NCBI GenBank assembly: GCA_004524535.1
Contig: SDNY01000061.1
Coordinates: 1-21,270, forward strand
Source of the DNA: Promethearchaeota archaeon
GTDB lineage: Archaea; Asgardarchaeota; Lokiarchaeia; Sigyniarchaeales; SOKP01
DNA: 21,270 nt
Direction of reading: 5' to 3'
Part shown: one piece after another, positions 1 through 17,937 of the stretch
Position numbering within the stretch: the stretch's first letter is position 1
How the letters are laid out: each line of letters begins with the position of its first letter
Made by a program: the position numbers and the translations under genes
Notes under the pieces: model-generated
Told to the model about the DNA's origin: nothing
What the model saw: the letters and a program-made list of their open reading frames with translations, nothing else
Databases searched by the model: none

Positions 1-3000
1 TATATGGAGACGTATATTGACGATTTAGACGATCCCTTCACGTTTAATGACATAGAGATTGAGGCGCCTGTACCAAAGAAGCTATTAGAGTTCTCTTGGG
101 AAATGGATAACATTCCCGCAATATTTGATTCGCTAACCACTATTTCAGAGTACGGCGGCATTTCTACCGAGAACATATTAGAATCCTTTGAAACCATTAG
201 CGTTCCCGGGGTGCATACCGAATGGACCGGATTTGACGAAAATAACAAGCTTTCAATGAGCGTAATAAAAGTGGTTCCAAGGGACGGCGTGTATTATGAT
301 AATGCGTTAGAAGATTTTCCCGAAAAAACGGATGGAGCATATTATTACATGAATGGAGATTTTGATGACAACACTTTCGAAACTATTCTGGTGACTAATA
401 AGGAGGGGAACACTATAGGAGTTGGGTTTGATTATGATGGGGATAATTATTTATTTCCAAGTAAGAGAATTTTAACCGAGAAAAAGATAATTAGGTCTCA
501 TCTTTCAGATGATTCTAGAAAGGGGAGATTTAGCTTGAAAGATTTCCGAGACCATCCGATGCTCAATTATCATGACGATGATGATTATAACGGCTATTAT
601 CTTGAAAGAACTTTTTCCGATGCTTTATTTGATATTTGGAAATTGGAGGACGCGGTTATATACGACGAGATGGCACAAATAACCTACGATAGGTTTGTAG
701 AATCTCTCACGCAAAAGAAATTGGCTAAAGATGTGGTCTGGCAAGCCTTCGCAGTAGGAATTTCCGCTGTCATAGGGGCTAAAACAGGCGGTGTTGGAGG
801 GTTCTTTTGCTATATGGGGTTAAGTATCTTAAAGGGAATTAACGACCAAGGCGAGCAAGATAATTTTATCAAATCACAGAAGTTTAAGAGCGAAGAGTAT
901 AAGGGGAAGAAAACGCTTTCTAAAAAATATTCTACAGACGATGCTCTTGGAGGGATGATGACGAATTCTCTGTATGGCAACCCGCAGGGAATATATGCTC
1001 CCATAAAAGTGCAAACCGAACTATACGATTACGAGGGTGAGGTTATTTTAGCACCTGCAGGTCCATTTAAAACGGGCTGGGATTGGGGTCAATTTTTCGG
1101 GGGTTTATTCACAGATTATTGGAGTTCTGCGAGGTCTGCTAAATATGATGATGTTCATGAACCTATGGATTATTCCCTTCAGACTAGGGGATACATGGGA
1201 TATTCAGATGTAACGGTCAAACCTAAAGATGGTTGGGAAATAGAGATCTTACAAGACCAATCCTTAGGTGTAGATAATGATGATTATAGAGTAGTGCATT
1301 ATCTTGATAATATTGGTGCGTACGACAGATATCACCAGCAAATCGCCTACGCGGAAAATAATATCGTTTTCATGGAAGAACAAATAATCTCTACAACCAA
1401 AGACAAAGACGATGAGCCGTTAGATAGAGTGATCCCTTATATGTTTGATTACTTCCCTGTATTATCCTTTGTTGAGACGGAAAGCATAGGGTCTATGCCC
1501 GAGTTTTATGAAGACTATCCTTTAATGGTGGATGATAGTTCTTACGGAAAGAAAGCGAATGATCACGAGACCATATTTAAGGTCTGGGAGGCAGAATCCA
1601 GCGAAATTCGCATCATTCCTAAAACTTCGGATCATGAACTTGAACCAAGAATCTTAGATATTGAAGCGCACTTATGTTCATATAGAGGTGAGAAAAGACA
1701 TTATGCTGAAAATCCAGACTATTTTAGGGAACGGGAAATAAAGGACCTCGATAGTGACGATTATGAGTTCGTGGAGGGCAAATTAATTTTGTCAGATCGA
1801 ACCTATGCTGAATTAAAAGAAGAATTTGATGGTCGAAAGGACTCAGTTATACATACAGATCCAATCGGAGATTGGCAAGTTTATATTGTCTTTAAAATTA
1901 AATTAGAAAAATATCGTTCTATTGGCGATGATCCTGAGCTTACCAAGATCGCCGCTATGCAGAACATTCAGGCAGCCGTTCTTGAATATTATTTTCAATC
2001 CCAATTAGCTATTCAGGGTCAGGAAAAATTAAATGAAATCGCCTACACGGTGGCTGTGACTGTGTTAAGCGTTATCGGTCTCCTTGCGATGCCCGGTACA
2101 ACTGCAAAGTCAATTTTATACGAGCCATTACAGGAAGTATTCCTTGATCCTATGGTGGAGGCGGTTGCCAGCAAGTTTGCGAGAGATTTAGGAGGCGATA
2201 GATATAGCGAGATTTTTTGGAGTGTCTTAGCTGAATCTGTAAGAGAAGCTCTTACTGGTCCAGGTATAGGCACTGATCCTAGAATTGATCCTGAGATCAC
2301 AGTTAATCCAGCATTGGATCTTGATACGAAGGCGAAAATGACTAAAGCTCAGAAAGATAAGGCCAATTTTCTCGAGCAGAAATACCAAGTTCTTAAGAAA
2401 CAGAGTAAAGCTCAGAAAGTTATTGCCATTCTTGCGTGTGTGGCGGCGGCGGCATTAGGACCAGCAGGAGTATTGGTTGCTGGAACCTTATCCACAGCTT
2501 ACGGTGCTTATTCCCAGCACTCTTCTGGCAAAAAGGTTAAGACACTCTTAGACATTTTCAAGGAATCCCTTAAAGATGTACCTGTCACTCCCGAGACTAT
2601 TCCATCCTTACTTCCTAATCTAAAAAAAGGTGACAAACAAGTTAATAACCTGAAGTTATGGGTTTTAACTAAAGCTTTCGCCAAGACTATTAAAACAACC
2701 AATTTATTAGATAAACAAAAACCAATTCCTTCGCATTCTATGTATATAAAATCTAAGAAAACATACAGAACAGTAATGAAACAAGCTCTAAAAATGGCGA
2801 AATCTGTTTTGCCTGGCGAAAAGAAAGTTGAGATTATCAACGAAGATGCTCCAACAGATATAAAGTTTAAGAGAGAAATAAAATCCTTCAAATATAAGTT
2901 AAAGGATGGAGCTCTTATAGAATTGGAAGCGGAATTTGTTATTCAAGAGGGAGTTGCTCAAGAGGATTGCAATTTGTATGCATTTCGAGTTTCTACAGCA

Positions 3001-4629
3001 CTCCCAGATGAAGCGGTTAAATTTATATACATTAAGAAGGGAATGCCTTTAGGAAAAGCTAAAGCAGTTATAAGACAAGCGTATAGATTCAATCCAATAT
3101 TGAGTGTTAAGCTTTTGGCTTATAGTTATTCTCATGGGAAAGATCAACTGTTTGAAGGAAATTCATTAGATGTTCTCCAAAAAGCAAATCTTAAGATTAC
3201 CGATTCCGGCGAGATTATTGTGTTAAATTATATAAAAGTACAGGGCATACAAGCAGCTAAACTTCCTAGTGAAGAGATGAGGCAGAAAAAGAAGCGTGGA
3301 AATATAGAGAATTGGAGAACTGAATTATCTAAATTATTAAATAAATTATTTGGTGAGGATCCTTATTCTATAGATTCTTCGACAGTTCCAAGTATAAGAG
3401 CTCTAACTAAAAGATTTAATAAGCAGGGATCTAGAGGTACTTTGACTACGTTTTTGAAGAATTATTTGTTAAAATTTAATAATCCCGAAGAATTATTTAA
3501 AAAATTTTGGTCAAGTCCATCAGATCCAGAAACAATTCTCGTTAAAAAGGATTTATTATTTCAGATATTAGATAAACAATTAGTTAATTATCCTCAACAA
3601 AAAATTAGTAGTATTCATGATTTGGTAAAATTTATAAATATAAGAATTGGAAGGACAACAAGAAGATCAGTTACTAAATGGACAAGAGAATATTTCTTAA
3701 ATAAACTTATTGAGGAGAATCCTAGTCTTGATTCAACTTTAGCAGAATCTTTAGCTGATAAACTCTATTCAGAAATCTGGCCCTCTCCTAAAGAAAATCC
3801 TGTTATGTATGAGGATATTGAATCTTATATTAAAGCAAGAGGCGGTATTTTAAAGACTACTATGACTCAATTTAATGCGATGAAAGCATCGCCTACTAAT
3901 AGAAAAATAATTATAGAATGTAAAGATGGACATAAATTCTCAATTTCTGTTCATCATATGTTACATCATAATCAATGGTGTTCAAAATGTGCAATTCGTT
4001 TTTGCGAGAAGATTACAAATTTATATGTTCAAAAAATTGTTGATCATATTAGTCCTACAAAGATTAATGTAAAACAACAAATTAAATTAGAGAAGGCTTT
4101 TGGTATCTCCCCTGACAAAGGAGGACGCTTAGTTTTGGATAATCTTATTCAGAACGTGAAACTTAAAGGTAAATCGATAGATGGAGAACTTATTGAGATG
4201 ATAATTAATTTTGTTGTGGAATATGATGGCATACAACATGATAAATTCCCTAATCCTTTCCATAAAAATAAAGCTCAGTTTAATAGGCAACAAGATAGAG
4301 ATAGTCTAAAAGATGATCAAATTGAGAAGCATAAACATTTTATGGTAAGGATAAAAGCTAAGTTCGGTTTCGATCACAAAAAAATAGATCATTTTCAAGC
4401 TGAAATTATCAGGCAACTTCAAGATTGGACGGGGCTGAAATTTGAGCCTATGCCACATTGGATTTATGATAAATATACTGATACTCTTATAAATGATCCT
4501 ACTGGCGCGACAATTGATGTTCCTTTTGATGTTAATGAATTTATCACTCCTCCTTTTTCAAAGCCATGGCTTTTTGGTACTATGGACTTTTTCTTGCGTA
4601 CCAAATACTTAGGGCAGAAAAAAAGTTAA
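1..4629 (+). CDS. C-terminal part (>=1542 aa) of a giant multidomain protein; putative polymorphic toxin with a C-terminal Zn-ribbon + Vsr/DUF559-like endonuclease
   Basis: Frame is open from base 1 (TAT ATG...), so the true start is probably upstream. Acidic region with NGDFDD and DYDGD motifs (~352-444). Hydrophobic segments at 733-831, 2038-2097 and 2419-2514. Ubl-like segment at 2974-3258. CKDGH...WCSKC Zn ribbon at 3919-3990. VEYDGIQHD...QQDRD..K nuclease motif at 4216-4311. Confidence 0.8.
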   Translation, partial: YMETYIDDLDDPFTFNDIEIEAPVPKKLLEFSWEMDNIPAIFDSLTTISEYGGISTENILESFETISVPGVHTEWTGFDENNKLSMSVIKVVPRDGVYYDNALEDFPEKTDGAYYYMNGDFDDNTFETILVTNKEGNTIGVGFDYDGDNYLFPSKRILTEKKIIRSHLSDDSRKGRFSLKDFRDHPMLNYHDDDDYNGYYLERTFSDALFDIWKLEDAVIYDEMAQITYDRFVESLTQKKLAKDVVWQAFAVGISAVIGAKTGGVGGFFCYMGLSILKGINDQGEQDNFIKSQKFKSEEYKGKKTLSKKYSTDDALGGMMTNSLYGNPQGIYAPIKVQTELYDYEGEVILAPAGPFKTGWDWGQFFGGLFTDYWSSARSAKYDDVHEPMDYSLQTRGYMGYSDVTVKPKDGWEIEILQDQSLGVDNDDYRVVHYLDNIGAYDRYHQQIAYAENNIVFMEEQIISTTKDKDDEPLDRVIPYMFDYFPVLSFVETESIGSMPEFYEDYPLMVDDSSYGKKANDHETIFKVWEAESSEIRIIPKTSDHELEPRILDIEAHLCSYRGEKRHYAENPDYFREREIKDLDSDDYEFVEGKLILSDRTYAELKEEFDGRKDSVIHTDPIGDWQVYIVFKIKLEKYRSIGDDPELTKIAAMQNIQAAVLEYYFQSQLAIQGQEKLNEIAYTVAVTVLSVIGLLAMPGTTAKSILYEPLQEVFLDPMVEAVASKFARDLGGDRYSEIFWSVLAESVREALTGPGIGTDPRIDPEITVNPALDLDTKAKMTKAQKDKANFLEQKYQVLKKQSKAQKVIAILACVAAAALGPAGVLVAGTLSTAYGAYSQHSSGKKVKTLLDIFKESLKDVPVTPETIPSLLPNLKKGDKQVNNLKLWVLTKAFAKTIKTTNLLDKQKPIPSHSMYIKSKKTYRTVMKQALKMAKSVLPGEKKVEIINEDAPTDIKFKREIKSFKYKLKDGALIELEAEFVIQEGVAQEDCNLYAFRVSTALPDEAVKFIYIKKGMPLGKAKAVIRQAYRFNPILSVKLLAYSYSHGKDQLFEGNSLDVLQKANLKITDSGEIIVLNYIKVQGIQAAKLPSEEMRQKKKRGNIENWRTELSKLLNKLFGEDPYSIDSSTVPSIRALTKRFNKQGSRGTLTTFLKNYLLKFNNPEELFKKFWSSPSDPETILVKKDLLFQILDKQLVNYPQQKISSIHDLVKFINIRIGRTTRRSVTKWTREYFLNKLIEENPSLDSTLAESLADKLYSEIWPSPKENPVMYEDIESYIKARGGILKTTMTQFNAMKASPTNRKIIIECKDGHKFSISVHHMLHHNQWCSKCAIRFCEKITNLYVQKIVDHISPTKINVKQQIKLEKAFGISPDKGGRLVLDNLIQNVKLKGKSIDGELIEMIINFVVEYDGIQHDKFPNPFHKNKAQFNRQQDRDSLKDDQIEKHKHFMVRIKAKFGFDHKKIDHFQAEIIRQLQDWTGLKFEPMPHWIYDKYTDTLINDPTGATIDVPFDVNEFITPPFSKPWLFGTMDFFLRTKYLGQKKS

Positions 4630-4662
4630 ATTTAAATTTATATTTTTACGTTTAATATAATA

Positions 4663-5214
4663 ATGAGCTCTTTACCTAAAGATCTGTTTTCTGAAGAACA
4701 TAATAGGAGTTCTTTAAGTCAAATAATAAGTTTTTTTAAAAATAATGAATTAAGAATAGGAGATAAAGTATATAATTCTAAGGCACTAGAGGATGTTATA
4801 TTACTTGAAATTGTTCCTTTTGATAAGATATTACAATATGAAAGAGAAGGAATTTGTCCCTATAATGTCTTATTTGAGACAATAGAAGGTAAGAAAAAAC
4901 GTGCACCGATAGGATGTATTACTAAAATATCAGAAGGAGACTACGAAGGTAATATTGAAATTGAAAGATTTAGAAAGAATAAGATTGATTTTTTTTATTT
5001 TCTTGCTAGAAGCGAAGGTTTTAGATCAGAAAAATTGTATAGAGATTGCAAATGTATCATTAGAATTCAAGGGGATTCACAAGAACAAGTGAACCAATTT
5101 ATAAAAGATGCTATATACACTTATAATATTTATTTTGGAAGACTAGAGAATAGACGCAAGGAAAGAAGGTCGGTAAAGCCCGATAGTGTAGTGGTCAAGC
5201 ATTTGGGACTCTGA
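4663..5214 (+). CDS. Hypothetical protein, 183 aa; candidate immunity protein for the upstream nuclease tip
   Basis: Starts 33 nt after the giant ORF stop on the same strand. LRIGDKVY suggests an SH3/KOW-like N-terminal part. The last 38 nt overlap the tRNA. The immunity role is inferred from position only. Confidence 0.6.
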   Translation: MSSLPKDLFSEEHNRSSLSQIISFFKNNELRIGDKVYNSKALEDVILLEIVPFDKILQYEREGICPYNVLFETIEGKKKRAPIGCITKISEGDYEGNIEIERFRKNKIDFFYFLARSEGFRSEKLYRDCKCIIRIQGDSQEQVNQFIKDAIYTYNIYFGRLENRRKERRSVKPDSVVVKHLGL

Positions 5215-5281: not shown

Positions 5282-6907
5282 TTAAGAACCGATAAATAAA
5301 AAATAGACAGGAATTCCATCATAATCATATCGATACTTCAAAGATTCAAAAAAATGAAAATCCCCGTAATCTGGTAGATGATTGTATATTGCTTCCCTAA
5401 TATCTTTTACTCTAATTCCATCGACTCGTTTTAGTTTTAGCCATCGAGGTTGTTTAATCTTAGGAAGCGGTTGATTTAAACTTCCTTGAGGAAAGCCCGT
5501 AAAATCCAAAATTTCTACGCTTGGAATAATAAAGATTTCATCGTAAGGAAAAATTATATCGTCATCTGATTTTTCCCATTTTGATTCTATCCATCCCCAT
5601 TTATATAAATCTTCTAATTGCTCTTTTTTATCGTCGATTTCGATCAAATTCTGGTTTTTACCCATTGTAATAAAGCTAACCTCGACATCATCGCTGTAAA
5701 TATTTTTTTTCCCTCCTTTAAAATCACTTTTTTCAATCGGGGATTTTTTAATAACTTTATTATTAAATTTAATGGATTTTAAAGAGCTAAGATTAATTAC
5801 TGATTCTGGAAGCTCATTCATCCCTCCAGCAAACACTTCCAATACTTTAAGCGAAGTTAGATTCTTAAAAGATTCTGGAAGACGACGGAATTTAATAAAG
5901 TTGAGTCGAATTCTAGAATGAAAGCTAAGAGCGTTTTTATCTCCCAATCTAAGATATTCTAGAGATTTAAGGTTACCAAAAGAATCTGGCAATTCCTCTA
6001 TATCTAAATACAATAGGCTTACTTCTTTAAGAGATTGTAAATTTCCAATTGTACTTGGAATTATTTTAATATGATTTAAATGTATGGTTAACTTCTCAAG
6101 AGAAGTCAAATTTCCAATAGCATCTGGTAACTCTTCTAAATGGTTGTTAATCAACACTAACTCTTTTAAAGATTTAAGTTTTGTTAAAACTAATGGAAAG
6201 TTTCTCAGAGGATTAAAAGTTAAACTTAATAATTCGAGAGACGTTAGGTTTTCAAACGAATCTGGAAGTGATTTTAAATAATTAGAGTCTAAGTTTAACT
6301 TTTTTAAATGGGTTAAATTGCCTATTGTCTCGGGTAAAACCTTCAAATTAGAATTAACCAAATTTAATCCAACAACATGGTTATCCTCAACATATATACC
6401 ATTTAGACAATCTTTTTTTTCAATAATAGGTAATGTTCGACCTAATAATTTTTCCAAATCTTTTAAACAGTTGACTTCTTCCAGATTTAATCCGTAATTT
6501 TCGTATACTTTCGTTTTTAAGTCTTTTTCTTTCAAATTGTTGAGAATCTCTTTATCAACATAGTTTCTTAACTTATGTTTTCTTAGCTCTCTTAAAAATT
6601 CTCTAATTAAATAACCATTATTTAGTTTAATACCACAATAAACACAATAATTAGCAACCTCTTTTTTTCCAATCTCTTTGTCATATTTATATTTAATAAA
6701 GGGATATATTTCTATCATTTTTTTATCCAATTTTTCAATATCTCCTAAATTATGGAAATAATTTTGATAAAAATAATAGGTAGCCACGGGAACCTTCTTA
6801 TAACATCTATAACATTCTAAATTCCATTTATACATTTTGAAATTATTAATTTTCTTTATATCGGTTTTAATTTTTGATTTACTGAATAAAACAATATAAT
6901 CGTTCAT
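5282..6907 (-). CDS. Leucine-rich repeat protein with an N-terminal C4 Zn-binding domain and an unassigned C-terminal domain
   Basis: CYRC...YPFIK...ANYCVYCG at the N-terminus. About eight 23-aa LxxLPxxIGNLxxLxxLxL repeats (~5757-6346). C-terminus GDFHFFESL...PVYFLFIGS. Confidence 0.9.
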   Translation of the reverse strand: MNDYIVLFSKSKIKTDIKKINNFKMYKWNLECYRCYKKVPVATYYFYQNYFHNLGDIEKLDKKMIEIYPFIKYKYDKEIGKKEVANYCVYCGIKLNNGYLIREFLRELRKHKLRNYVDKEILNNLKEKDLKTKVYENYGLNLEEVNCLKDLEKLLGRTLPIIEKKDCLNGIYVEDNHVVGLNLVNSNLKVLPETIGNLTHLKKLNLDSNYLKSLPDSFENLTSLELLSLTFNPLRNFPLVLTKLKSLKELVLINNHLEELPDAIGNLTSLEKLTIHLNHIKIIPSTIGNLQSLKEVSLLYLDIEELPDSFGNLKSLEYLRLGDKNALSFHSRIRLNFIKFRRLPESFKNLTSLKVLEVFAGGMNELPESVINLSSLKSIKFNNKVIKKSPIEKSDFKGGKKNIYSDDVEVSFITMGKNQNLIEIDDKKEQLEDLYKWGWIESKWEKSDDDIIFPYDEIFIIPSVEILDFTGFPQGSLNQPLPKIKQPRWLKLKRVDGIRVKDIREAIYNHLPDYGDFHFFESLKYRYDYDGIPVYFLFIGS

Positions 6908-7153
6908 AATTTTTATCTTATAAAATCATTTTGTCTTACTTTTATTGGTATTTAGAAATTTTTAGTATTTTTGGTTATTTCATATTTATTTGAATTATAT
7001 TTGAATTTCTAATATAATAAATCTACCTGATCATTTGTATTCTATTATATATAAAAGAAATTCCGTGCTGGGCTATATTTGTTTCTCTAAATATTCCTTT
7101 ATATAGTTGTTTTGATAAAATTCTTTTTTATGCACTTTTAAGCTAAGAATTTT

Positions 7154-7512
7154 TTATCCTGTACGTTTAATTATATGATAACCAAATTGAGTTTTAACAG
7201 GTTGAGATATTTCACCAATCTTTAATTTAGTACAAGCGTTCCAGAATTCAGATACCATTTTTCCTTTGGGAAATTCTCCTAAGTTGCCTCCTTTATTCTT
7301 ACTCGGGCACTCAGAATACTGTCTTGCGAGTTTTTCAAAGCTTTCACCAGCTTGCAAATCTTCATAAATTTCTTGTGCCCTACTTAGCTTATTAACTAAT
7401 ATATGGCTTGCTTTTATTTTTCCCCCTTTTATTGGGCTCCTCCTTTTCCTGCGGAGCCCTTTGATGCTCCACCCTTTTTTTGCATCCCTTTTCCATATTT
7501 TGGTTTTCCCAT
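7154..7512 (-). CDS. Parvulin-type peptidyl-prolyl isomerase (Par14/PIN4-like), interrupted by a 1-nt frameshift in the 5' part
   Basis: Parvulin motifs [32 protein letters not shown] and [11 protein letters not shown]. The ATG at 7512 reads [27 protein letters not shown] to TAA at 7431-7429. The catalytic frame is -1 relative to it and has no start upstream of ASHILV. The span is 359 nt, one short of 120 codons. Confidence 0.88.
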
Positions 7513-7580
7513 AATTTCAAACCTAAAATTATCTGTTAATTTTATTAATATTATTAAGTGTTCAAGTTAAGAAAAAGTAG

Positions 7581-8006
7581 TTAATTGATGATTAGATACC
7601 TGAAGTTTTTAATTTCCTTTATACTATTGATTTCAACAACAATGCTACGAAAATCTTGAAGGCTTCCCTCAAAAACCAAAAAGAATGTATTATGAGGATT
7701 ATTAGTATAAAATTGCTGATTCTTACTTACAATCTGATCGCAATATTTATTTTCTATTTTATTCAATTTTTTTAGAATATTTATATCATTAGGTACGACG
7801 ATTATCATATTACCGATAATTTTTTTAGTTAATGGAGTAAAAAAATCAATAGTAGCGGCATCCATGTTTGAAAAGTCAGGACTTTGCTGTAATCTCAATA
7901 TTGCATCCCTAATTAGTTTAGATTTGTTCTTGTACTTATTTTTAGAAATTAGTTTATCCAAGAACTTCTTAAGATTATCATTAAGAGACACGGAAACAAT
8001 GGGAAT
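7581..8006 (-). CDS. Ribbon-helix-helix (CopG/NikR-like) transcriptional regulator with an ACT-like C-terminal domain
   Basis: PIVSVSLNDNLKKFLDKL...NKSKLIRDAI fits the RHH pattern. Start placed at ATT 8006 because the GTG at 8015 in the ORF track lies inside the RBS AGGTGG. Confidence 0.75.
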   Translation of the reverse strand: MPIVSVSLNDNLKKFLDKLISKNKYKNKSKLIRDAILRLQQSPDFSNMDAATIDFFTPLTKKIIGNMIIVVPNDINILKKLNKIENKYCDQIVSKNQQFYTNNPHNTFFLVFEGSLQDFRSIVVEINSIKEIKNFRYLIIN

Positions 8007-8011
8007 GAATA

Positions 8012-8017
8012 CCACCT
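8012..8017 (-). promoter_or_regulatory. Shine-Dalgarno site AGGTGG for the RHH gene
   Basis: Minus strand reads AAAAGGTGG-TATTC-ATT CCC ATT GTT, a 5-nt spacer before ATT. Confidence 0.6.
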
Positions 8018-8098
8018 TTTTTTTATTTCTATCTTTGCTTTATATATAATTAGATATAAAAATTTATATATTTATTGTATATAATTGAGAATGAAATT

Positions 8099-10471
8099 TT
8101 AAATCTTTAAAGTTCTAGTTAATACATTTCTGAAGCTTTCTATATCATTAACTAATTTATCGGCGTCATCTTCACTAATACTTTGATCCTTCTCATATTT
8201 ATTTAATCTTGTAAGCCAGAATTCAATTCGCCCTAGGACTGGGCTATCCTCTCCAATAATCTTTCTTAAGCGAATAAAAGTATCATGTAATTTATTTCTT
8301 ATATTTTGTGCTTTCCAACGGAGCATGCAGTAATCGCTTACCTCTGCCAGATTCTGGGTTATTGCCATGACATCGAGCGTTTTCTCTCTTTCAGAGCTTT
8401 TAATTGACCGTATTATGTCTATTTGTTCATACAATAGCTCGATAATTTTTGCTAGAAATCCTGTAAGTTGTCCCGGATTCGCACACCAAACTCGTATTTC
8501 CAAGGATTGACTTGCAGACGAAACAAACACTCTTATAATTATTCTACCGCCCGTGACCTTTGCTTCTGAACAAAACCACGCTTCGGCTTCATAATTTTTT
8601 TCTGCATTGCCACCTTCATGAGATGTAATCATACTTGTATCAAAATTTTTTAAAGTTCTAATTCCAGCTCTATAAGCTAATCGAGGGTCTAAATCAGCAA
8701 TTAAAAAAGCCCGAGCATCATTAGGGAGGTCTTGAATTGATAATTGACAATCTTCGATATTTGTTAGAGAAGCACAAACTAAAGGACACTTAATTTGTAC
8801 TTCTTTTTTTCTCACATGAATCGTTTTTTGTTCACCAACAGCATTTTTGTAAATGATAGTTCCGCCAATATTAGAAATTCCACATTCCTTAGGTTCTAAA
8901 TAGAAATCTACTCCCCTTGAATTCCCTTGTTCAATGACTGGAATAGTTATTAAAGATTGTTTTAAATTGTAGCTTGAAGGAGCATCTAATACAACTTTTA
9001 CATTATTAATCGCCATATCACTATGATTTCTCACAACAACTTTGAAATGAAGTTGACCCCCTATAAAATCATAATCGCGTAATGCTTCAATTTTCCCCTC
9101 ATCTTTCGGCTCAATTTTTTCTTTCGTAACCTGAGCCGCCTTTCTTGAAGCTATTGGTACATCATAGGCAACAAGCATTTTTTTTTCAGAGTCAATATAT
9201 CCATCTATTTCGCCCCTTCCGATTAAAATTGCTAAATTTTCTTCAATAGTCGCCTCTGTCACTCCTAATCTATTTGCTAATTCTTTCAATTTTAAGTTTC
9301 TATATGCTCTCGTGAGTTCTTTTAGTTTTGTTTCGAGATATTTCGTTGTCATGAATTCGCGCCGCTGCGTAAATATACCAGATATTTCAGCACTTTTAAT
9401 CATTTCGTGAAGACTTTTTCTACTTAATTCCAATGCGATATTCTGTTTTTCAGCAAGTTTTGAAAGTTTAAATACTCCCCTATCTTTTGAAAATTGTTTA
9501 ATCTCCCTATAAATTTGATTGGTAGTAATTATTTGTTTACCATGATCAGCAAAATATCCATTAATAGCTTTAGTTTTCATAAGATTAATACAATTATTCT
9601 TAATTAACTCAGAGGGCATGTTAAAAATTTTTGCAAGCTCAATTAACGGAATTCGACCTTTTTCATTAATAGTTTTTATTAAATTATCAGTAATATAGTT
9701 CTGAGAATAATATATTCTTTTATCTTTTGAAAATGCTCCTTTAATTTGGAATTTACTGATTTGTTTGTAAATTACTTTAAGGGCCATATCTGAACTCATA
9801 TCCAGCATCACTGCTAAATCTTTTACCTTTATGATACCTTCTTCTTGAATTTTTGTAACTAATTTCTTTCGCATCTCAAAAGATATATAATAAAATATTC
9901 GATTTGTAGAATCTATAATTCCGTATATTCGTTCTTCTTCAATATATTTCTTTATTAATTTTGCCATCTGTTCTGCTGAGATATGAAAGGCATCCATTAT
10001 GGCTGAAAAATTCGTTGTAGGAGCTGTCTTTAAAAGGTCTAAGAAACATTTAGGGCAAATCTCTTTTCCAATAATGTGTTTTAGTTTTTTGTTACACTTC
10101 GAAAAGGATTGAATAAGATTATACCTTCTCGCTTCTTTTTTCAATTGATCTTCTGATGGATAAAATATACCAGGTGTTTTTAAATACGAATTCCATCCAT
10201 CTTCAGGGTTTGTACATTGAAGAAAATACTGACCTGATGATAATTGCTCGATTCTTAAAAGAGAGCCACAATCTGGACAAGAACTATCTTCCATGATTGA
10301 ACAGCGATATTGTAATTCAGAAGCTTTCGCTTTTGAGTATTGTTGATTATGTTTCTTACATTCCCATAACTCCGTTGTTGCTGTGTGGTTAATACAAAAT
10401 TTAGATTTACATTTCTCACATTTAAATTCTATGCGTGAACTGTCACAGAACAAACATTTTTCCGTCGCCAT
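8099..10471 (-). CDS. Zn-finger + tandem winged-helix (PCI/DDRGK/UFL1-like) + Ig-like/platform appendage protein, 790 aa
   Basis: N-terminal CLFC..CEKC....CINH, CKKH, CPDC and CPKC. Five ~60-aa repeats ending I.G.[IF]D/S (~10020-9170). Then DYDFIGGQLHFKVVVRN...FYLEP beta-sandwich, an alpha/beta segment and a helical tail. Confidence 0.75.
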   Translation of the reverse strand: MATEKCLFCDSSRIEFKCEKCKSKFCINHTATTELWECKKHNQQYSKAKASELQYRCSIMEDSSCPDCGSLLRIEQLSSGQYFLQCTNPEDGWNSYLKTPGIFYPSEDQLKKEARRYNLIQSFSKCNKKLKHIIGKEICPKCFLDLLKTAPTTNFSAIMDAFHISAEQMAKLIKKYIEEERIYGIIDSTNRIFYYISFEMRKKLVTKIQEEGIIKVKDLAVMLDMSSDMALKVIYKQISKFQIKGAFSKDKRIYYSQNYITDNLIKTINEKGRIPLIELAKIFNMPSELIKNNCINLMKTKAINGYFADHGKQIITTNQIYREIKQFSKDRGVFKLSKLAEKQNIALELSRKSLHEMIKSAEISGIFTQRREFMTTKYLETKLKELTRAYRNLKLKELANRLGVTEATIEENLAILIGRGEIDGYIDSEKKMLVAYDVPIASRKAAQVTKEKIEPKDEGKIEALRDYDFIGGQLHFKVVVRNHSDMAINNVKVVLDAPSSYNLKQSLITIPVIEQGNSRGVDFYLEPKECGISNIGGTIIYKNAVGEQKTIHVRKKEVQIKCPLVCASLTNIEDCQLSIQDLPNDARAFLIADLDPRLAYRAGIRTLKNFDTSMITSHEGGNAEKNYEAEAWFCSEAKVTGGRIIIRVFVSSASQSLEIRVWCANPGQLTGFLAKIIELLYEQIDIIRSIKSSEREKTLDVMAITQNLAEVSDYCMLRWKAQNIRNKLHDTFIRLRKIIGEDSPVLGRIEFWLTRLNKYEKDQSISEDDADKLVNDIESFRNVLTRTLKI

Positions 10472-12160: not shown

Positions 12161-12943
12161 TTAACCTATTAAAACCTTTTTGTAAATTAAATATATAATT
12201 CCGATATAAATTATAACTAATATCACTGGTATAAAAAATTCTATTGTTGTTAGTATAGATTTATTTTCTAAAACAATTTCGACAATTATCTGATGATTTG
12301 CAATATACAGCTTATATGAATTTAAAATACCTTGATCATTATATGTTGCGTGAATTTTAATATATTCAGTAGGATAATCACCTTTCAAATCATCTTTTTG
12401 AATTTCACAACTTATAGCTGTTATGGTTCTGGATCTGGTATCAATAGAATAACCCTCATATAGACCTATTTCTTTTAAATAGTCATCTAATGGGAGAGGG
12501 AGCCAGACTGGAGCAAAATTTGGAAATATTAAATCATCAGAATAATCTTTTGGATGAGAATAATGTGTAATTTGGTCTTTATAATCATAATCGCCCCATT
12601 CATCATCATTTGTCCATATCCACTTTTTAAAAGTAATACTAAAAAATTCCTCGTTTTCTTGTGAGTTCGGATTGTATATTTCTAAATCTTTATCAGTCTC
12701 TTTAACCGTCAATCTCATCCGATTTCCGCGTTTTAATTCTTCAAAAAGACCTGTTCCATTAGAATTCCAATTTTTTCCAAGTAAATCCTCCATTTTCTTT
12801 TTATCGCATATATTACATTTCCAGGTAAACTTATCGCCTTTATCGACGCCAATATCATAATTTGATGCTACTACATTTGAAGTTGTAATAAGAATAAATC
12901 CTAGAAATACCATTGATATTAATAAAAGCAATTTAATCTTCAA
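12161..12943 (-). CDS. Secreted, C-terminally membrane-anchored surface protein
   Basis: TTG start after GAGGA. N-terminal signal peptide, YDIGVDKGDKFTW start of the mature domain, C-terminal TM helix followed by KK. Confidence 0.75.
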   Translation of the reverse strand: MKIKLLLLISMVFLGFILITTSNVVASNYDIGVDKGDKFTWKCNICDKKKMEDLLGKNWNSNGTGLFEELKRGNRMRLTVKETDKDLEIYNPNSQENEEFFSITFKKWIWTNDDEWGDYDYKDQITHYSHPKDYSDDLIFPNFAPVWLPLPLDDYLKEIGLYEGYSIDTRSRTITAISCEIQKDDLKGDYPTEYIKIHATYNDQGILNSYKLYIANHQIIVEIVLENKSILTTIEFFIPVILVIIYIGIIYLIYKKVLIG

Positions 12944-12984
12944 AATTAATTTCCTCTAAATATAATATTTTGAATTTTATTTAT

Positions 12985-14232
12985 CTATTTTTTCTCTGAC
13001 TTTAACACATATTTACTTATCCCCAAAAAAACCAATATTAGAAAAATCGTGCTTGCAAAATTATAGGGAAAGTAAAACCAAATTAAGAACCAAATTCCCA
13101 TAAAAGCTAAATCAAAGAAACTGAAAAAGAGCAGACTTTTTCTAAAATATTTCATAGTTATTTCTGAATGTCTCGGTAAAATAAATATCATTATAATCAA
13201 TAATGGAATTAAATTCAGAAGATGATGGTCCCAAGAATCGTAATATCCAAGTAGCATAATTATTATGCCAAAAGTAATCCCATAAATTATTTGATAGTTT
13301 TTGTCAAATTTTCCAATAATGAAAATTATAAATCCAATCCCTCCTACAATACCTATGACACCAATTAACACATATAGTTGATTAAAGGGAATATTATACA
13401 GAAAGCAGAAATTTAGTATTAATTTAGTAATACTAAATGAAAAATTTATAGTAACCGGATTACTTCCTGTAAAATTTGTTTCTATAAATCCTTCCCATAA
13501 TTTAGGATATGCTAGAAATATGAAAATATTTAACGAAACTGGCAAAAATACTCCAATTAACCTTACGAGGCTAGTTGAAAAATCAACAGTAACCTTTTTC
13601 ATTCTTTTAAAATCTAGATTGATTACTAATAAAAATGGAATTAAAAAAAAAGCTATAGGTTTAAGGATTATACTTACTCCTAAAATTAAACTACCAACAA
13701 ATTGCCATATAAATTCGTCATATTTAAGAAAGATGTAAAGAGAGATTAGTATAAAAAGGGTAATATATAAATTAATTTGCCCTAAAATATAGTTAAAAAA
13801 TTGGGGTATCCCTACCAAATAAACACAAATATACATGATAATTCGCTTATCGTCTTCTTCATGATCCTCACCTTTAACAAATTTACAAATTTTGTATAAA
13901 AAAATACAAATCAATATATTAAGAATTAAATTAAAAGTATGGAAAAGTAGGAAACCTAATTCAAAACCTAAAAGATAAAAAGGGACGAAAAAAATTGCAG
14001 AGAGAGGTAAATACCTATAGTCCCATAAATAATGTTCTTGATCATATAAACCATTTATATCGTTGTAGAATATTCCCCCTGCATTAAAATAAATTATAAA
14101 ATCGTTTTGATCTCTGAGAATTGTTAGAACAATGATTAACGTGACAATGAAATAACCTAAATGACCTATGACCGCATATCGAAAAAATTTAAAATTAATC
14201 CAGAGTTCTTTAAATCTCTTAATCGGTTTCAT
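12985..14232 (-). CDS. GT-C fold glycosyltransferase, GT87/DUF2029-like
   Basis: Polytopic membrane protein with DF.IY..AG, YRYLP, GQIN, ILKP and SWDHH motifs. Confidence 0.85.
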   Translation of the reverse strand: MKPIKRFKELWINFKFFRYAVIGHLGYFIVTLIIVLTILRDQNDFIIYFNAGGIFYNDINGLYDQEHYLWDYRYLPLSAIFFVPFYLLGFELGFLLFHTFNLILNILICIFLYKICKFVKGEDHEEDDKRIIMYICVYLVGIPQFFNYILGQINLYITLFILISLYIFLKYDEFIWQFVGSLILGVSIILKPIAFFLIPFLLVINLDFKRMKKVTVDFSTSLVRLIGVFLPVSLNIFIFLAYPKLWEGFIETNFTGSNPVTINFSFSITKLILNFCFLYNIPFNQLYVLIGVIGIVGGIGFIIFIIGKFDKNYQIIYGITFGIIIMLLGYYDSWDHHLLNLIPLLIIMIFILPRHSEITMKYFRKSLLFFSFFDLAFMGIWFLIWFYFPYNFASTIFLILVFLGISKYVLKSEKK

Positions 14233-15839: not shown

Positions 15840-16469
15840 CTAGTATCCGTTAATTTGGTTAAAATAATCATCTGGATCATCAATCCCGGATTTTAATAAT
15901 TCAATTTCCTTTTGAATCCCCAATTCTTTACTAGTCTTAATCATATATGATACATCTAATGTATCATTAAATCTCATCCAACATCCTAAGGCATCAGTGT
16001 AATCTTGCCAGCCTCCATAGACTAATTTGCTCATTATAAAATCTTCTTTAGATGTTGACCAACATTCGATTTCCGAAAAAGAAACTCTTACTCTTCTCTT
16101 TAATGCAATCAGCCCGATTCTGTTATATTTGTCTTTTGACTGTCTATCGAGAATATAATTATCAAATTTAATATTCTCTTGTTTATCTAAATATTGAAGT
16201 AATTTAGTTTCTCTCGCCAATCTTGCTGTAGTTTCCCAATCTTGATAAGGGTAAAAATCATTTTGTCTTAATAAAGAAATGTAGGATTCAATACTATGAT
16301 TAACCGAATAAATATCAACAACAAAATCAATATCTTGGGTTGATCTAAGTTCAGAATAGAGACTTGTTAAAACACCACCAACTAAATAATATTTGATACC
16401 ATATTCTTGTTCAATTTTTTCGAGAAAGTCTATCAATTGTTTAAAGGCTAATTCATACCTTATTTCCAT
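15840..16469 (-). CDS. Nucleotidyltransferase toxin, MenT1/AbiEii/DUF6036-like
   Basis: LVGG..TS.YSE.RSTQDIDFVV is a Pol-beta-type signature. EDFIMSKL...QDYTD in the C-terminal part. Overlaps the upstream small gene by 10 nt. Confidence 0.85.
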   Translation of the reverse strand: MEIRYELAFKQLIDFLEKIEQEYGIKYYLVGGVLTSLYSELRSTQDIDFVVDIYSVNHSIESYISLLRQNDFYPYQDWETTARLARETKLLQYLDKQENIKFDNYILDRQSKDKYNRIGLIALKRRVRVSFSEIECWSTSKEDFIMSKLVYGGWQDYTDALGCWMRFNDTLDVSYMIKTSKELGIQKEIELLKSGIDDPDDYFNQINGY

Positions 16470-16708
16470 TTTTTCTTGCGCCTTAATTTCATTTTTTCGT
16501 TAAATTCATTCATTTCAATAATAATTTCTTTTTGTTTTTTATTTGGAAATCTTTTCATTTCTGTTTCAATATAATTTTTGATTCCAAAATTACATAAATC
16601 GAAAAAGATTTTAACTGATTTCTTGGTTGGAGTTCTTTTCATTAGTTCAATCTTTTCCTTAAAATTCCTTGAAATCTTCCTAAAATTTTTTTCTGTACCC
16701 TCTGACAT
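16460..16708 (-). CDS. Small antitoxin, MenA1 (Rv0078B)-like, 82 aa
   Basis: Likely start is ATG 16708 (MSEGTEK). Contains the pattern D-x4-G-x12-PN-x4-EI. Translationally coupled to the nucleotidyltransferase. Confidence 0.7.
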   Translation of the reverse strand: MSEGTEKNFRKISRNFKEKIELMKRTPTKKSVKIFFDLCNFGIKNYIETEMKRFPNKKQKEIIIEMNEFNEKMKLRRKKKWK

Positions 16709-16830
16709 ATTCTTTATTTTTCTTTTAAGAACAAAATTAATTTTAATAATATAATTTTCTAAATTATTAATAAAACAAGACACTTATTAAATTTCTTAAT
16801 AACTTTCATTCTTGAAAGTCAAAGAAATCC

Positions 16831-17937
16831 TCACTTTTTCCTTTCTATTATTAATTCTTTCTCAAAAAAACCAGATTCAATGATATCTTGCCGTCTCCCA
16901 TCCAATTTTGTGTATAACTCAAAAGGAAAATTATTTTCTGCACTTTTTTTGTTATTTTTTTTAAAACTCATTATTCTTTTACGTGTGAGATATATCGAGT
17001 ACTCAGAAATATCGCATCCAATCCATTTTCTACTTAGTTTTTCAGCAGCTAATAATGTTGTCCCTGAACCACAAAAAAAATCTGCTATTAAATCACCCTT
17101 ATTACTTCCTAATTTTATTATTCGCTCAAGTAATTGGTGATGCTTCTGAGTAGGAAACCCTGTCCATTCTTTAGATGCGGGTTGCATACAAGGAATTTTC
17201 CACACATCATCCATTTTTTTATCCTTCACGATACGGTATACCACATGACCATCTTCACCTTTTACATTCTTTAAAACTCCATTAACCATTTCTCTTTTAA
17301 GTTGTTTCCTCGGTTTTTTACGTGGCATTCTTAATTCATTAAAAGTATAATCAGATGTTTTAGAATATACTAAAATATCGTCATGTGCCCGGGGGAGGTT
17401 CTTTTTCCCAGCGGAATATTTATTATAATAGTACCAAATAATATTATTAATAAAATTCTCTTGTCCAAATACTTCATCCAATACCAATTTGATATAGTGG
17501 CTGGCATGCCAATCTAAATGAATAAATAATAAACCAGTGTTCGTCAATAATTTATGAAATAAAACGATTCTTTTATGTAGCATTTGTAAATAAGAGTCAA
17601 AATCCTTTTCCCATTTGTCAAAGTAGGCTACGGTTTCATAATCTTTATCGGCTTCTTTAACTTGGATATTATAATTAGATCCGGAAAAAAAAGGGGGATC
17701 TATGTATATTAAATCTATTTTTTCTTCAAAATCATTTAATAGATAATATAAAACTTCTAAATTCTCGCCCCAAAATAATTTATTTTTCCATTTGTTTGAA
17801 TTTTTTTCTTTTTTAGCGTGTATTTCATAAAAACTTGATAATATATCAATTTTCTTAAAATAACTCAAATATTTCTTCTTTAACTTCTCTATATCGTTTG
17901 TTATATTATTTTTATCTTCCCAGACTAATTTAACCAT
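16831..17937 (-). CDS. Site-specific DNA methyltransferase (N6A/N4C, beta class, type III Mod-like)
   Basis: MVKLVW..K N-terminus, IDLIYIDPPF (motif IV) preceding FPTQK and DFFCGSGTT (motif I). Confidence 0.92.
   Translation of the reverse strand: MVKLVWEDKNNITNDIEKLKKKYLSYFKKIDILSSFYEIHAKKEKNSNKWKNKLFWGENLEVLYYLLNDFEEKIDLIYIDPPFFSGSNYNIQVKEADKDYETVAYFDKWEKDFDSYLQMLHKRIVLFHKLLTNTGLLFIHLDWHASHYIKLVLDEVFGQENFINNIIWYYYNKYSAGKKNLPRAHDDILVYSKTSDYTFNELRMPRKKPRKQLKREMVNGVLKNVKGEDGHVVYRIVKDKKMDDVWKIPCMQPASKEWTGFPTQKHHQLLERIIKLGSNKGDLIADFFCGSGTTLLAAEKLSRKWIGCDISEYSIYLTRKRIMSFKKNNKKSAENNFPFELYTKLDGRRQDIIESGFFEKELIIERKK

Follow-up and report, generated by a model that had tools for sequence, protein, structure and literature searches.

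The window analysed here covers positions 1 to 21,270 of contig C153 (SDNY01000061.1) of G000, a 3.66 Mb genome of a Promethearchaeota archaeon in 198 contigs (GCA_004524535.1). It opens with a giant open reading frame (ORF) of 1542 amino acids (aa), which occupies nucleotides (nt) 1-4629 of the + strand, is open at its 5' end and consists of a carrier body and a nuclease tip. A second ORF on the same strand, the 183-aa P0002 (4663-5214), starts 33 nt after the stop of the first, exactly as the first-pass annotation of the sequence had it, and is the candidate immunity or neutraliser gene. We consider it probable that the two form a conflict module of the polymorphic nuclease-toxin plus immunity type, with an undescribed carrier, confined to a few Asgard lineages. 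The term "giant" refers here to the 1542-aa ORF and its relatives, "body" to the part before a conserved junction, and "tip" to the part after it; C-numbers denote G000 contigs, L-numbers other loci, and P-numbers proteins.

Conserved bodies with unrelated tips

A tblastn search of G000 with the giant found copies on C155, C117, C70, C150, C43, C48 and C32 besides that on C153. The bodies are 78-89% identical over aa 12-998, and the tips are unrelated, except that the C155 tip resembles that of C43 and, weakly, that of C153. Similarity ends after a short junction motif, which reads IKVQGIQAA in the window (aa 1078-1086, nt 3232-3258) and ITVMAQQRG in three other copies. The C43, C48 and C32 copies have about 90% DNA identity as far as the junction at nt 484-486 and nothing in common beyond it. 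The C70 copy is 97% identical to C155 over 371 nt, yet 83% identical to C153, a mosaic pattern as expected from recombination.

Outside G000, a word-indexed search of 5.8 billion proteins returned four relatives of the giant, and HMMER, run exhaustively over 1.84 billion cluster representatives, returned 102 at E ≤ 1e-3 (82 at ≤ 1e-10 and 42 at ≤ 1e-30). Family members reach 4099 aa. They have in common the N domain, the middle domain and the region of hydrophobic segments 2-3, and they differ in the tip and in an N-terminal extension that ranges from 0 to about 2700 aa. A body that stays constant while tips and small neighbours vary, which the first-pass annotation had proposed as the mark of a polymorphic toxin, is found within G000 and across the relatives.

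The distribution of the family is patchy. It occurs in 12 of the 301 sampled genomes of the phylum, with 9/68 in family f1, 1/7 in f2 and 1/28 in f9, and several carrier genomes have two to four copies. Viral contigs gave no relative in a single-protein query, which finds close relatives only. The metagenome loci L036 and L040 have open frames of more than 3531 and more than 4194 aa, respectively, that still run off the 5' ends of their contigs.

The tip and its predicted nuclease

The variable tip of the window giant (aa 1087-1542, nt 3259-4626; all features of the giant lie on the + strand) is on a single-copy unitig and contains no N-x-S/T sequon. Its first recognisable element is a winged-helix or helix-turn-helix (HTH)-like DNA-binding part at tip residues 86-175 (nt 3514-3783), based on a weak match to the Spo11/TopoVI-A winged helix (Z ~6.3). 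This is followed by a Zn-ribbon of the form C-x3-H ... C-x2-C (aa 1306-1330, nt 3916-3990) and by a predicted Vsr/EDxHD-like PD-(D/E)xK nuclease core (aa 1329-1478, nt 3985-4434), to which both motifs and a fold match point. The core motifs are LVLD (nt 4129-4140), VVEYDGIQHD (aa 1405-1414, nt 4213-4242) and RDSLK (nt 4297-4311).

Three kinds of evidence bear on this assignment. The PHROG family phrog_681, annotated "endonuclease", matches aa 1271-1348 (E 9.6e-7). The AlphaFold model of the tip, with a predicted local distance difference test score (pLDDT) of 66, gives fold matches over tip residues 243-392 to the catalytic domain of I-Bth0305I (3r3p_B; Z 8.4, 98/98 residues, root-mean-square deviation 3.3), to Vsr (1cw0; Z 7.9, 129 residues), to the RAP domain of FASTKD4 (Z 8.4) and to NGO0050 (3hrl; Z 7.2); these are moderate Z values, but the best-scoring rows are consistent among themselves and with the motif. 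In an alignment of 11 tip sequences, the C..H..C..C ribbon and the D...E-Y-x-G-x-Q-H-D...R-D-x-x-K columns are conserved. On the basis of this fold and these columns we assign the window tip to the Vsr/EDxHD-like PD-(D/E)xK nucleases. The terminal Zn-ribbon and EYDGIQHD nuclease that the first-pass annotation had read from the letters are thus backed, as a prediction, by motif, PHROG match and fold. No Pfam model passes its cut-off on the window tip, Foldseek finds no PDB match to the tip model at E ≤ 0.001, a search of aa 1250-1542 against the 5.8 billion proteins within a size range of 161-513 aa gives no match, and a PDB sequence search with the nuclease part returned nothing meaningful.

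Full-length relatives of the window tip sit on two other bodies, P0011 and P0037 (31-32% identity), and more distant ones on C155 and C43. When 68 tips are clustered by their last 300 aa, they fall into 9 clusters and 20 singletons, that is, 29 groups. Pfam cut-offs are passed by LAGLIDADG_3 in the C48 tip and by GIY-YIG plus HTH in a copy from G001, a genome of the same genus, and one further relative has a precomputed LAGLIDADG match. Judged by eye only, the C117 and P0005 tips look HNH-like, those of P0006 and C70 like PD-(D/E)xK enzymes, and those of C32 and G1C9 like GIY-YIG enzymes. The tips are 450-800 aa long, with several HTH, winged-helix or Zn-ribbon modules, and belong to homing-endonuclease families.

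Related genes also occur by themselves in G000. C16:3803-8402 holds free-standing LAGLIDADG (381 aa), multi-Zn-ribbon (278 aa) and Vsr-like (219 aa) genes within 5 kb, and a homolog of the C32 downstream neighbour lies at C16 11384-11905, with ordinary genes around. Inside the tip of P0025, residues 653-709 have a weak ubiquitin-family match (E 1.8e-4) that falls under the Pfam cut-off.

The downstream gene and its linkage to the tip

The gene that follows the giant was compared at 25 loci with a complete 3' end: nine in G000 and G001, five in another three genomes, and 11 from metagenomes, where four more (of 15 in all) were dropped because their 3' ends are cut. A same-strand ORF lies directly downstream at all 25, although at two of them it overlaps the end of the giant and is possibly a frameshifted continuation. 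In nine of the 25 the downstream product is a leucine-rich repeat (LRR) protein; G000 as a whole has about 32 LRR genes in its 3.66 Mb (our own count from 127 matches). Bacterial polymorphic toxin systems count Imm-LRR among their recognised classes of immunity protein (PMC3482391). In the window, the downstream product P0002 lacks a signal peptide, and its sequon content is normal. Convergent with it is a gene for a 541-aa LRR protein (5282-6907, - strand), which may be associated, as LRR genes accompany many giants.

No homolog of P0002 was found in the search of 5.8 billion proteins. One was found in the ORF behind the L033 giant, from another genus (27% identity over 124 aa, pairwise E 1e-7), and the L033 tip, multi-Zn-ribbon and Vsr-like, is of the same class as the window tip. 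The first-pass annotation had named occurrence of the 183-aa family away from giant genes as a sign against an immunity role; no such occurrence was detected, and the single detectable homolog of P0002 sits behind a giant with the same class of tip.

The same association is seen elsewhere. All three non-LRR downstream clusters with two members lie behind a common tip cluster (C153/L033, C117/L038 and L040/L043), which is unlikely by chance because only 12 of 300 locus pairs have a common tip cluster. Among the LRR neighbours, those of C48 and L034 (44% identical) are both behind LAGLIDADG tips, and those of C70 and L037 are behind tips of one cluster. The bodies closest to that of C153, namely C155 and C117, have other tips and other downstream genes, so tip and neighbour appear to travel together, apart from the body. 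An orphan cassette on C137 consists of a truncated LAGLIDADG remnant, 70% identical to the C48 tip, beside an intact LRR gene, 82.5% identical to the downstream neighbour of C48.

On both sides of the C137 cassette (8100-9970) lies a copy of the 3' end of a topoisomerase gene, and the cassette looks as if it had been inserted with a target duplication of about 290 bp. Co-folding of tip residues 180-456 with the 183-aa protein gave a score of 0.01 against a mark of 0.32, which is no verdict and counts neither way. At L021 (G001:C6), the downstream LRR protein and an upstream WD40 protein (6925-8064 and 12497-13786) appear by eye to have a similar N-terminal domain of about 130 aa.

Partition of glycosylation sequons

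Sequons (N-x-S/T, where x is not P) were counted and compared with the number expected from each sequence's own composition. The 65 tips (39,882 aa) contain two, with 222.7 expected, and with one tip per cluster the count is one versus 49.8 (Poisson P 1e-20). Depletion continues upstream into the body: the region of hydrophobic segments 2-3 has none (29.5 expected), the middle domain 38 (112.8) and the N domain 18 (67.7). The N-terminal extensions are enriched, with 194 sequons versus 131.6 expected, as are three predicted secreted proteins of G000 (181 versus 86.3). All 1358 G000 ORFs of at least 300 aa together have 4657 (4224.9 expected), the downstream genes 23 (27.4), the other window genes 25 (23.8), and free-standing nuclease relatives 15 (23.9). 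The window giant has none (6.9 expected), and giants rank 1, 2, 3, 5 and 6 of 2263 G000 ORFs for sequon depletion. In the long relatives the extension is densely populated with sequons, which cease far ahead of the C-terminus; in one relative the last 1660 residues are free of them.

Controls counted in the tips show that the depletion is specific. N-P-S/T, which is not an acceptor site, occurs 17 times versus 6.8 expected, the reversed S/T-x-N 196 times versus 222.7, and Q-x-S/T 157 times versus 161.3; N-x-C occurs twice versus 10.3. G000 has an STT3/AglB oligosaccharyltransferase gene. If, as we infer, selection on sequons acts only on proteins that encounter this enzyme outside the membrane, then the giant would be exported and the downstream protein cytoplasmic. 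The pattern is indirect but strong support for the export proposed in the first-pass annotation.

No Pfam trafficking domain was found in the family members scanned. Two further G000 genes, C148:16450-19092 (- strand) and C136:1643-3652 (- strand), encode paralogs of 881 and 670 aa that are 65% identical and free of sequons, and an LRR gene converges on the 3' end of each; they may represent a second toxin-like family.

A motif at the C-terminus

The window giant has a C-terminal KYLG motif (nt 4603-4614), an instance of a family-wide [YFWH][LF]G tail motif. The motif is present in the last 14 residues of 15 of the 68 tips, compared with 54 of 3127 internal windows (1.7%; binomial P 7e-13). 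It occurs across at least six tip classes and was seen again in further loci, and it may be an export or processing signal. No DNA-level signal common to the 3' ends of the genes was seen by eye. A free-standing 595-aa protein of G000 (C56:22290-24074, + strand), homologous to the tips of two members, contains no sequon where 4.1 are expected, and its last residues are NYLGNL; as it has no carrier, the tip module and the tail motif therefore also exist without one.

Architecture of the carrier

The body begins with a conserved acidic, beta-rich N domain (aa 1-240, nt 1-720) with DxDGD-type motifs, among them FDYDGDNY (aa 143-150, nt 427-450). Hydrophobic Gly-rich segment 1 (aa 245-277, nt 733-831), modelled as a helical hairpin, is under the hydrophobicity threshold in the window copy and clear in homologs. 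It is followed by a conserved acidic alpha/beta middle domain (aa 278-676, nt 832-2028), which is the best-conserved part of the family and is confidently modelled, with no known fold found; by hydrophobic segment 2 (aa 677-706, nt 2029-2118); and by the Gly/Ala-rich hydrophobic segment 3 (aa 804-837, nt 2410-2511), which has Lys-rich flanks on both sides. A Lys-rich linker (nt 2512-2832), modelled with low confidence, leads to a pre-tip domain (aa 945-1086, nt 2833-3258) that is kept among the G000 paralogs and ends in the junction motif. The acidic body, the three hydrophobic segments and the switch to Lys-rich sequence described in the first-pass annotation are all borne out: aa 1-676 have 19.2% D+E, 10.1% K+R and a net charge of -62, and aa 833-1542 have 13% K and a net charge of +36.

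An AlphaFold model of aa 1-1086, built on a 51-sequence alignment, has a mean pLDDT of 66.7 and a predicted template modelling score of 0.66, and is confident over about aa 60-750. It shows the beta-rich N domain, a helical bundle that holds the hydrophobic helices, and the alpha/beta middle domain. Foldseek found no match to the body model in the PDB at E ≤ 0.001 and none among viral structures (BFVD), and an ESM Atlas search with the middle domain gave no usable match. VIA-align returned rows for helical hairpins only (Z ≤ 7.4), the query being the whole 1086-residue model, so that a known fold may have gone unrecognised.

Pfam and NCBIfam give nothing under E 0.05 on the window giant, including any RHS, CdiA, LXG or HINT domain, and Pfam gives nothing above threshold on three of the longest relatives and 13 other family members. 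In PADLOC (2023 library) no model matches the giant, the 183-aa ORF, the LRR protein or the ribbon-helix-helix (RHH) protein at E ≤ 0.01. A SLATT_1 match at aa 786-857 (E 0.18) is not significant. These searches agree with the earlier suggestion that the carrier lacks the hallmarks of known toxin classes and may be an undescribed scaffold. We found no description of the family in the literature searched, which excluded all supplements and the 2019 mBio survey of archaeal toxins, where it may be listed. A tape-measure or ejection protein was considered and dropped, given ordinary chromosomal genes on the flanks and no viral matches.

The contig start and the remainder of the window

The giant frame is open from nt 1, with an ATG at nt 4 and the stop at 4627-4629, and it is 5'-truncated because the window starts a contig. 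Contigs C155 and C117 begin at a base that matches window nt 34 exactly, and several paralog copies in G000 are cut off by contig ends. The public assembly graph of the probable source run represents the body as short unitigs at a depth of about 125-148, and the tip with P0002 (nt 3056-5213) forms one unitig at a depth of 47. Because the depth of the body unitigs is two to three times that of the tip, the contig break is a collapsed repeat of about three near-identical bodies. A search for the upstream contig found none in the bin that overlaps the first bases of the window. The last 197 nt of C73 (37499-37695) encode the probable start of one giant gene, and by comparison with P0005 we estimate that the window giant is short of roughly 125 aa at its N-terminus. 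No RNA sequencing runs with this stretch are listed, the probable source run being the only one that holds it.

The G+C content is 39% in the body (window 1-3000) and 24-36% in the tip (3001-5000) and the rest of the window, a contrast that could stem from composition, from a different history or from gene conversion among the paralogs. The remainder of the window holds ordinary chromosomal genes. The 790-aa product of one of them (8099-10471, - strand) unites the Pfam domains PCI, E3_UFM1_ligase, DDRGK and VPS28, an unusual combination of eukaryotic-signature parts in one chain that fits the Asgard origin proposed earlier. A DUF6036 nucleotidyltransferase-like gene adjoins an N6/N4 DNA methylase gene (15840-17937, - strand), and the two could be a small defence or restriction-type pair.

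Interpretation and alternatives

In the model that we favour, the giant carrier would be exposed on the outer face of the membrane. The N-terminal extension of full-length relatives would form a sequon-rich stalk, expected to be glycosylated, and the part from the N domain through the three Gly-rich hairpins to the tip would be kept free of glycosylation sites and probably be inserted into or passed across a membrane. The tip, with its winged helix, Zn-ribbon and Vsr/EDxHD-like nuclease, would cut the DNA of a recipient, and the cytoplasmic downstream product, here that of the 183-aa ORF and elsewhere often an LRR protein, would neutralise the cognate tip in the producer. Tip and downstream gene would be swapped as a cassette by recombination at the conserved junction before the tip. 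The Asgard DNase weapon envisaged in the first-pass annotation is thus retained in part: variable tips, a nuclease fold and, indirectly and from sequence patterns, export speak for it, and the giants inspected show neither a signal peptide nor linked secretion genes.

A bolder version, which we put forward tentatively and hold to be somewhat doubtful, makes the giant a self-delivering toxin. The glycosylated stalk would remain outside, and a strictly glycan-free module of more than 1000 residues (N domain, three hairpins and homing-type endonuclease) would be exported without a Sec signal, the [YF]LG tail perhaps being a new export or processing signal, and threaded through the membrane of a neighbour, whose DNA it would then cut.

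A number of observations weigh against the toxin-immunity model. On the side of export, no signal peptide or N-terminal transmembrane helix was found in 21 family N-termini, in two complete ORFs on long contigs, inspected together with the DNA upstream of them, or in the C73 start, and no secretion-system genes were found among the genes flanking giants. Hydrophobic segments 1 and 3 are bordered on either side by Lys-rich sequence, as would suit hairpins whose two ends lie on the same face of the membrane. The case built on sequons is indirect, as it assumes that only exposure to the oligosaccharyltransferase selects against N-x-S/T. On the side of the tips, the C150 paralog is divergent, 772 aa long and without a tip; the tips look like full site-specific homing-type endonucleases, unlike small non-specific toxin domains; and G000 encodes free-standing homologs of several tip types with no carrier, whose sequon content is near normal. 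Linkage to the downstream gene is also incomplete: P0002 has few relatives (one detectable homolog), only five of the 12 pairs with a common tip cluster also have a common downstream cluster, a permutation test that includes the large LRR cluster is weak (P 0.066), and C155 and C43 have the same tip class with different downstream genes.

Some of these observations would suit an intracellular, membrane-tethered nuclease with a cognate inhibitor, that is, an antiviral abortive-infection or toxin-antitoxin-type module. The hairpins would anchor it to the inner face of the membrane, the tip would be cytoplasmic, and the downstream protein, often an LRR sensor, would restrain it until triggered. 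The missing signal peptide and the Lys-rich flanks of segments 1 and 3 agree with such an arrangement, as do the patchy distribution and the weak, non-significant SLATT_1 match; moreover, LRR proteins are typical sensors, and swapped nuclease effectors are common in defence systems. We nevertheless think it unlikely. A cytoplasmic protein should not avoid N-x-S/T, yet the tips do so almost completely, in a genome that stands at 1.1 times expectation and next to downstream genes that are normal, and the N-terminal extensions are enriched as in secreted proteins. No PADLOC model of the 2023 library matches at E ≤ 0.01, and at least seven copies per genome with near-identical bodies and cassette-like junctions are typical of polymorphic toxins and not of defence genes.

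The nature of the tips raises the question of whether they are parasites: selfish homing-endonuclease genes that entered a multi-copy membrane-protein gene, in frame and at its 3' end, and then moved from paralog to paralog by homing at the conserved junction. The LAGLIDADG and GIY-YIG tips detected by Pfam, the I-Bth0305I-like fold, the long DNA-binding parts, the sharp junctions among paralogs, the tipless C150 copy, the free-standing homologs in G000, and the C137 orphan insertion flanked by the duplicated topoisomerase 3' end are all in keeping with this. It is a very improbable account of the whole, as it leaves unexplained the linked and, in part, co-varying downstream genes, the [YF]LG tail across tip classes (15/68 versus a 1.7% background) and the contrast between sequon-free fused tips and sequon-bearing free-standing homologs; no intein or HINT domain was found either. 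We give equally little credence to surface-anchored or secreted nucleases that scavenge extracellular DNA, in which the downstream gene would encode an intracellular inhibitor that shields the producer before export, as barstar, the intracellular inhibitor of barnase, protects its producer before that nuclease is exported. Such enzymes would account for the extracytoplasmic exposure to which the sequons point, for downstream genes of cytoplasmic type and for the nuclease fold in the tip, but they would need neither many unrelated nuclease families per genome, nor DNA-binding modules of site-specific type, nor cassette exchange, and they offer no evident reason for strict avoidance of glycosylation over more than 1000 residues, hydrophobic hairpins included.

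If the toxin-immunity model is true, the giants would be a native archaeal polymorphic-toxin system, restricted to Asgard archaea and with a carrier of no recognised fold, as opposed to systems deemed bacterial loans in PMC3482391. No lineage is closer to eukaryotes than that of the host, and cell-cell interactions in it are almost unexplored. The components would be unusual, since enzymes of homing-endonuclease type would act as warheads and LRR proteins would be the likely antidotes. The partition of sequons (about 220 expected in tips, two found) also provides a simple, measurable handle on where proteins reside and whether they are exported in organisms that largely defy cultivation, and it may serve more generally as a signature to search with. 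Should the giants deliver themselves, sequon avoidance would become a general signature for translocated effectors in N-glycosylating organisms, and Asgard archaea would practise nuclease warfare or kin discrimination with LRR-type immunity proteins.

Comparison with known systems

The closest parallel is with the polymorphic toxins CdiA, Rhs and MafB. As described by Zhang et al. 2012 (PMC3482391), these and related systems share with the giants a large conserved carrier with a hypervariable C-terminal nuclease beyond a sharp junction, a gene directly downstream that tends to go with the tip, orphan cassettes, multiple copies in a genome and patchy occurrence. The giants differ in having no FHA, YD/RHS, LXG, PAAR, HINT, PrsW or DUF4157 domain in the carrier, no signal peptide and no linked secretion system, and, because no known trafficking domain is present, the giant cannot be placed in any existing polymorphic-toxin class. 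They differ also in their homing-type tips of 450-800 aa with DNA-binding modules, in the [YF]LG tail and in their partitioned sequons. The part of PMC3482391 consulted mentions no LAGLIDADG or GIY-YIG toxin, and it describes polymorphic toxins as rare in archaea and derived from bacteria.

With respect to individual classes, the FHA/haemagglutinin repeats, VENN-type motif and CdiB of the CdiA/CdiB systems are not matched by the giant in Pfam or NCBIfam, and the junction motif differs. Rhs toxins are marked by a shell of YD repeats and by a PxxxxDPxGL cleavage motif; no RHS/YD match was found in the giant, and the body is modelled as an alpha/beta domain and a helical bundle.

Nuclease colicins and pyocins are likewise modular, with hydrophobic or translocation segments, a C-terminal DNase that enters a competitor and an immunity gene directly downstream, and in this general plan the giant is alike. 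It has no relation to them in sequence or fold, is three to eight times larger, and has an archaeal host.

Homing endonucleases (I-Bth0305I, PDB 3r3p; LAGLIDADG; GIY-YIG) have the same catalytic folds and motifs as the tips, together with HTH, winged-helix and Zn-finger modules, and free-standing relatives in G000 resemble the tip types. The tips differ from them in being fused to the C-terminus of a giant, outside any intron or intein, in being followed by a gene that co-varies with them in part, and in being sequon-free, which the free-standing relatives are not.

Finally, a hypervariable Ig-domain module of Thermococcales is also an archaeal candidate for conflict or self-nonself recognition in which a large protein is accompanied by variable downstream genes, and it has been proposed to be analogous to polymorphic toxins (PMC8416519). 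With no homology detected between the two, they differ in their building blocks: that module combines Ig domains with a signal-type surface protein, whereas the giants combine a novel acidic body with nuclease tips.

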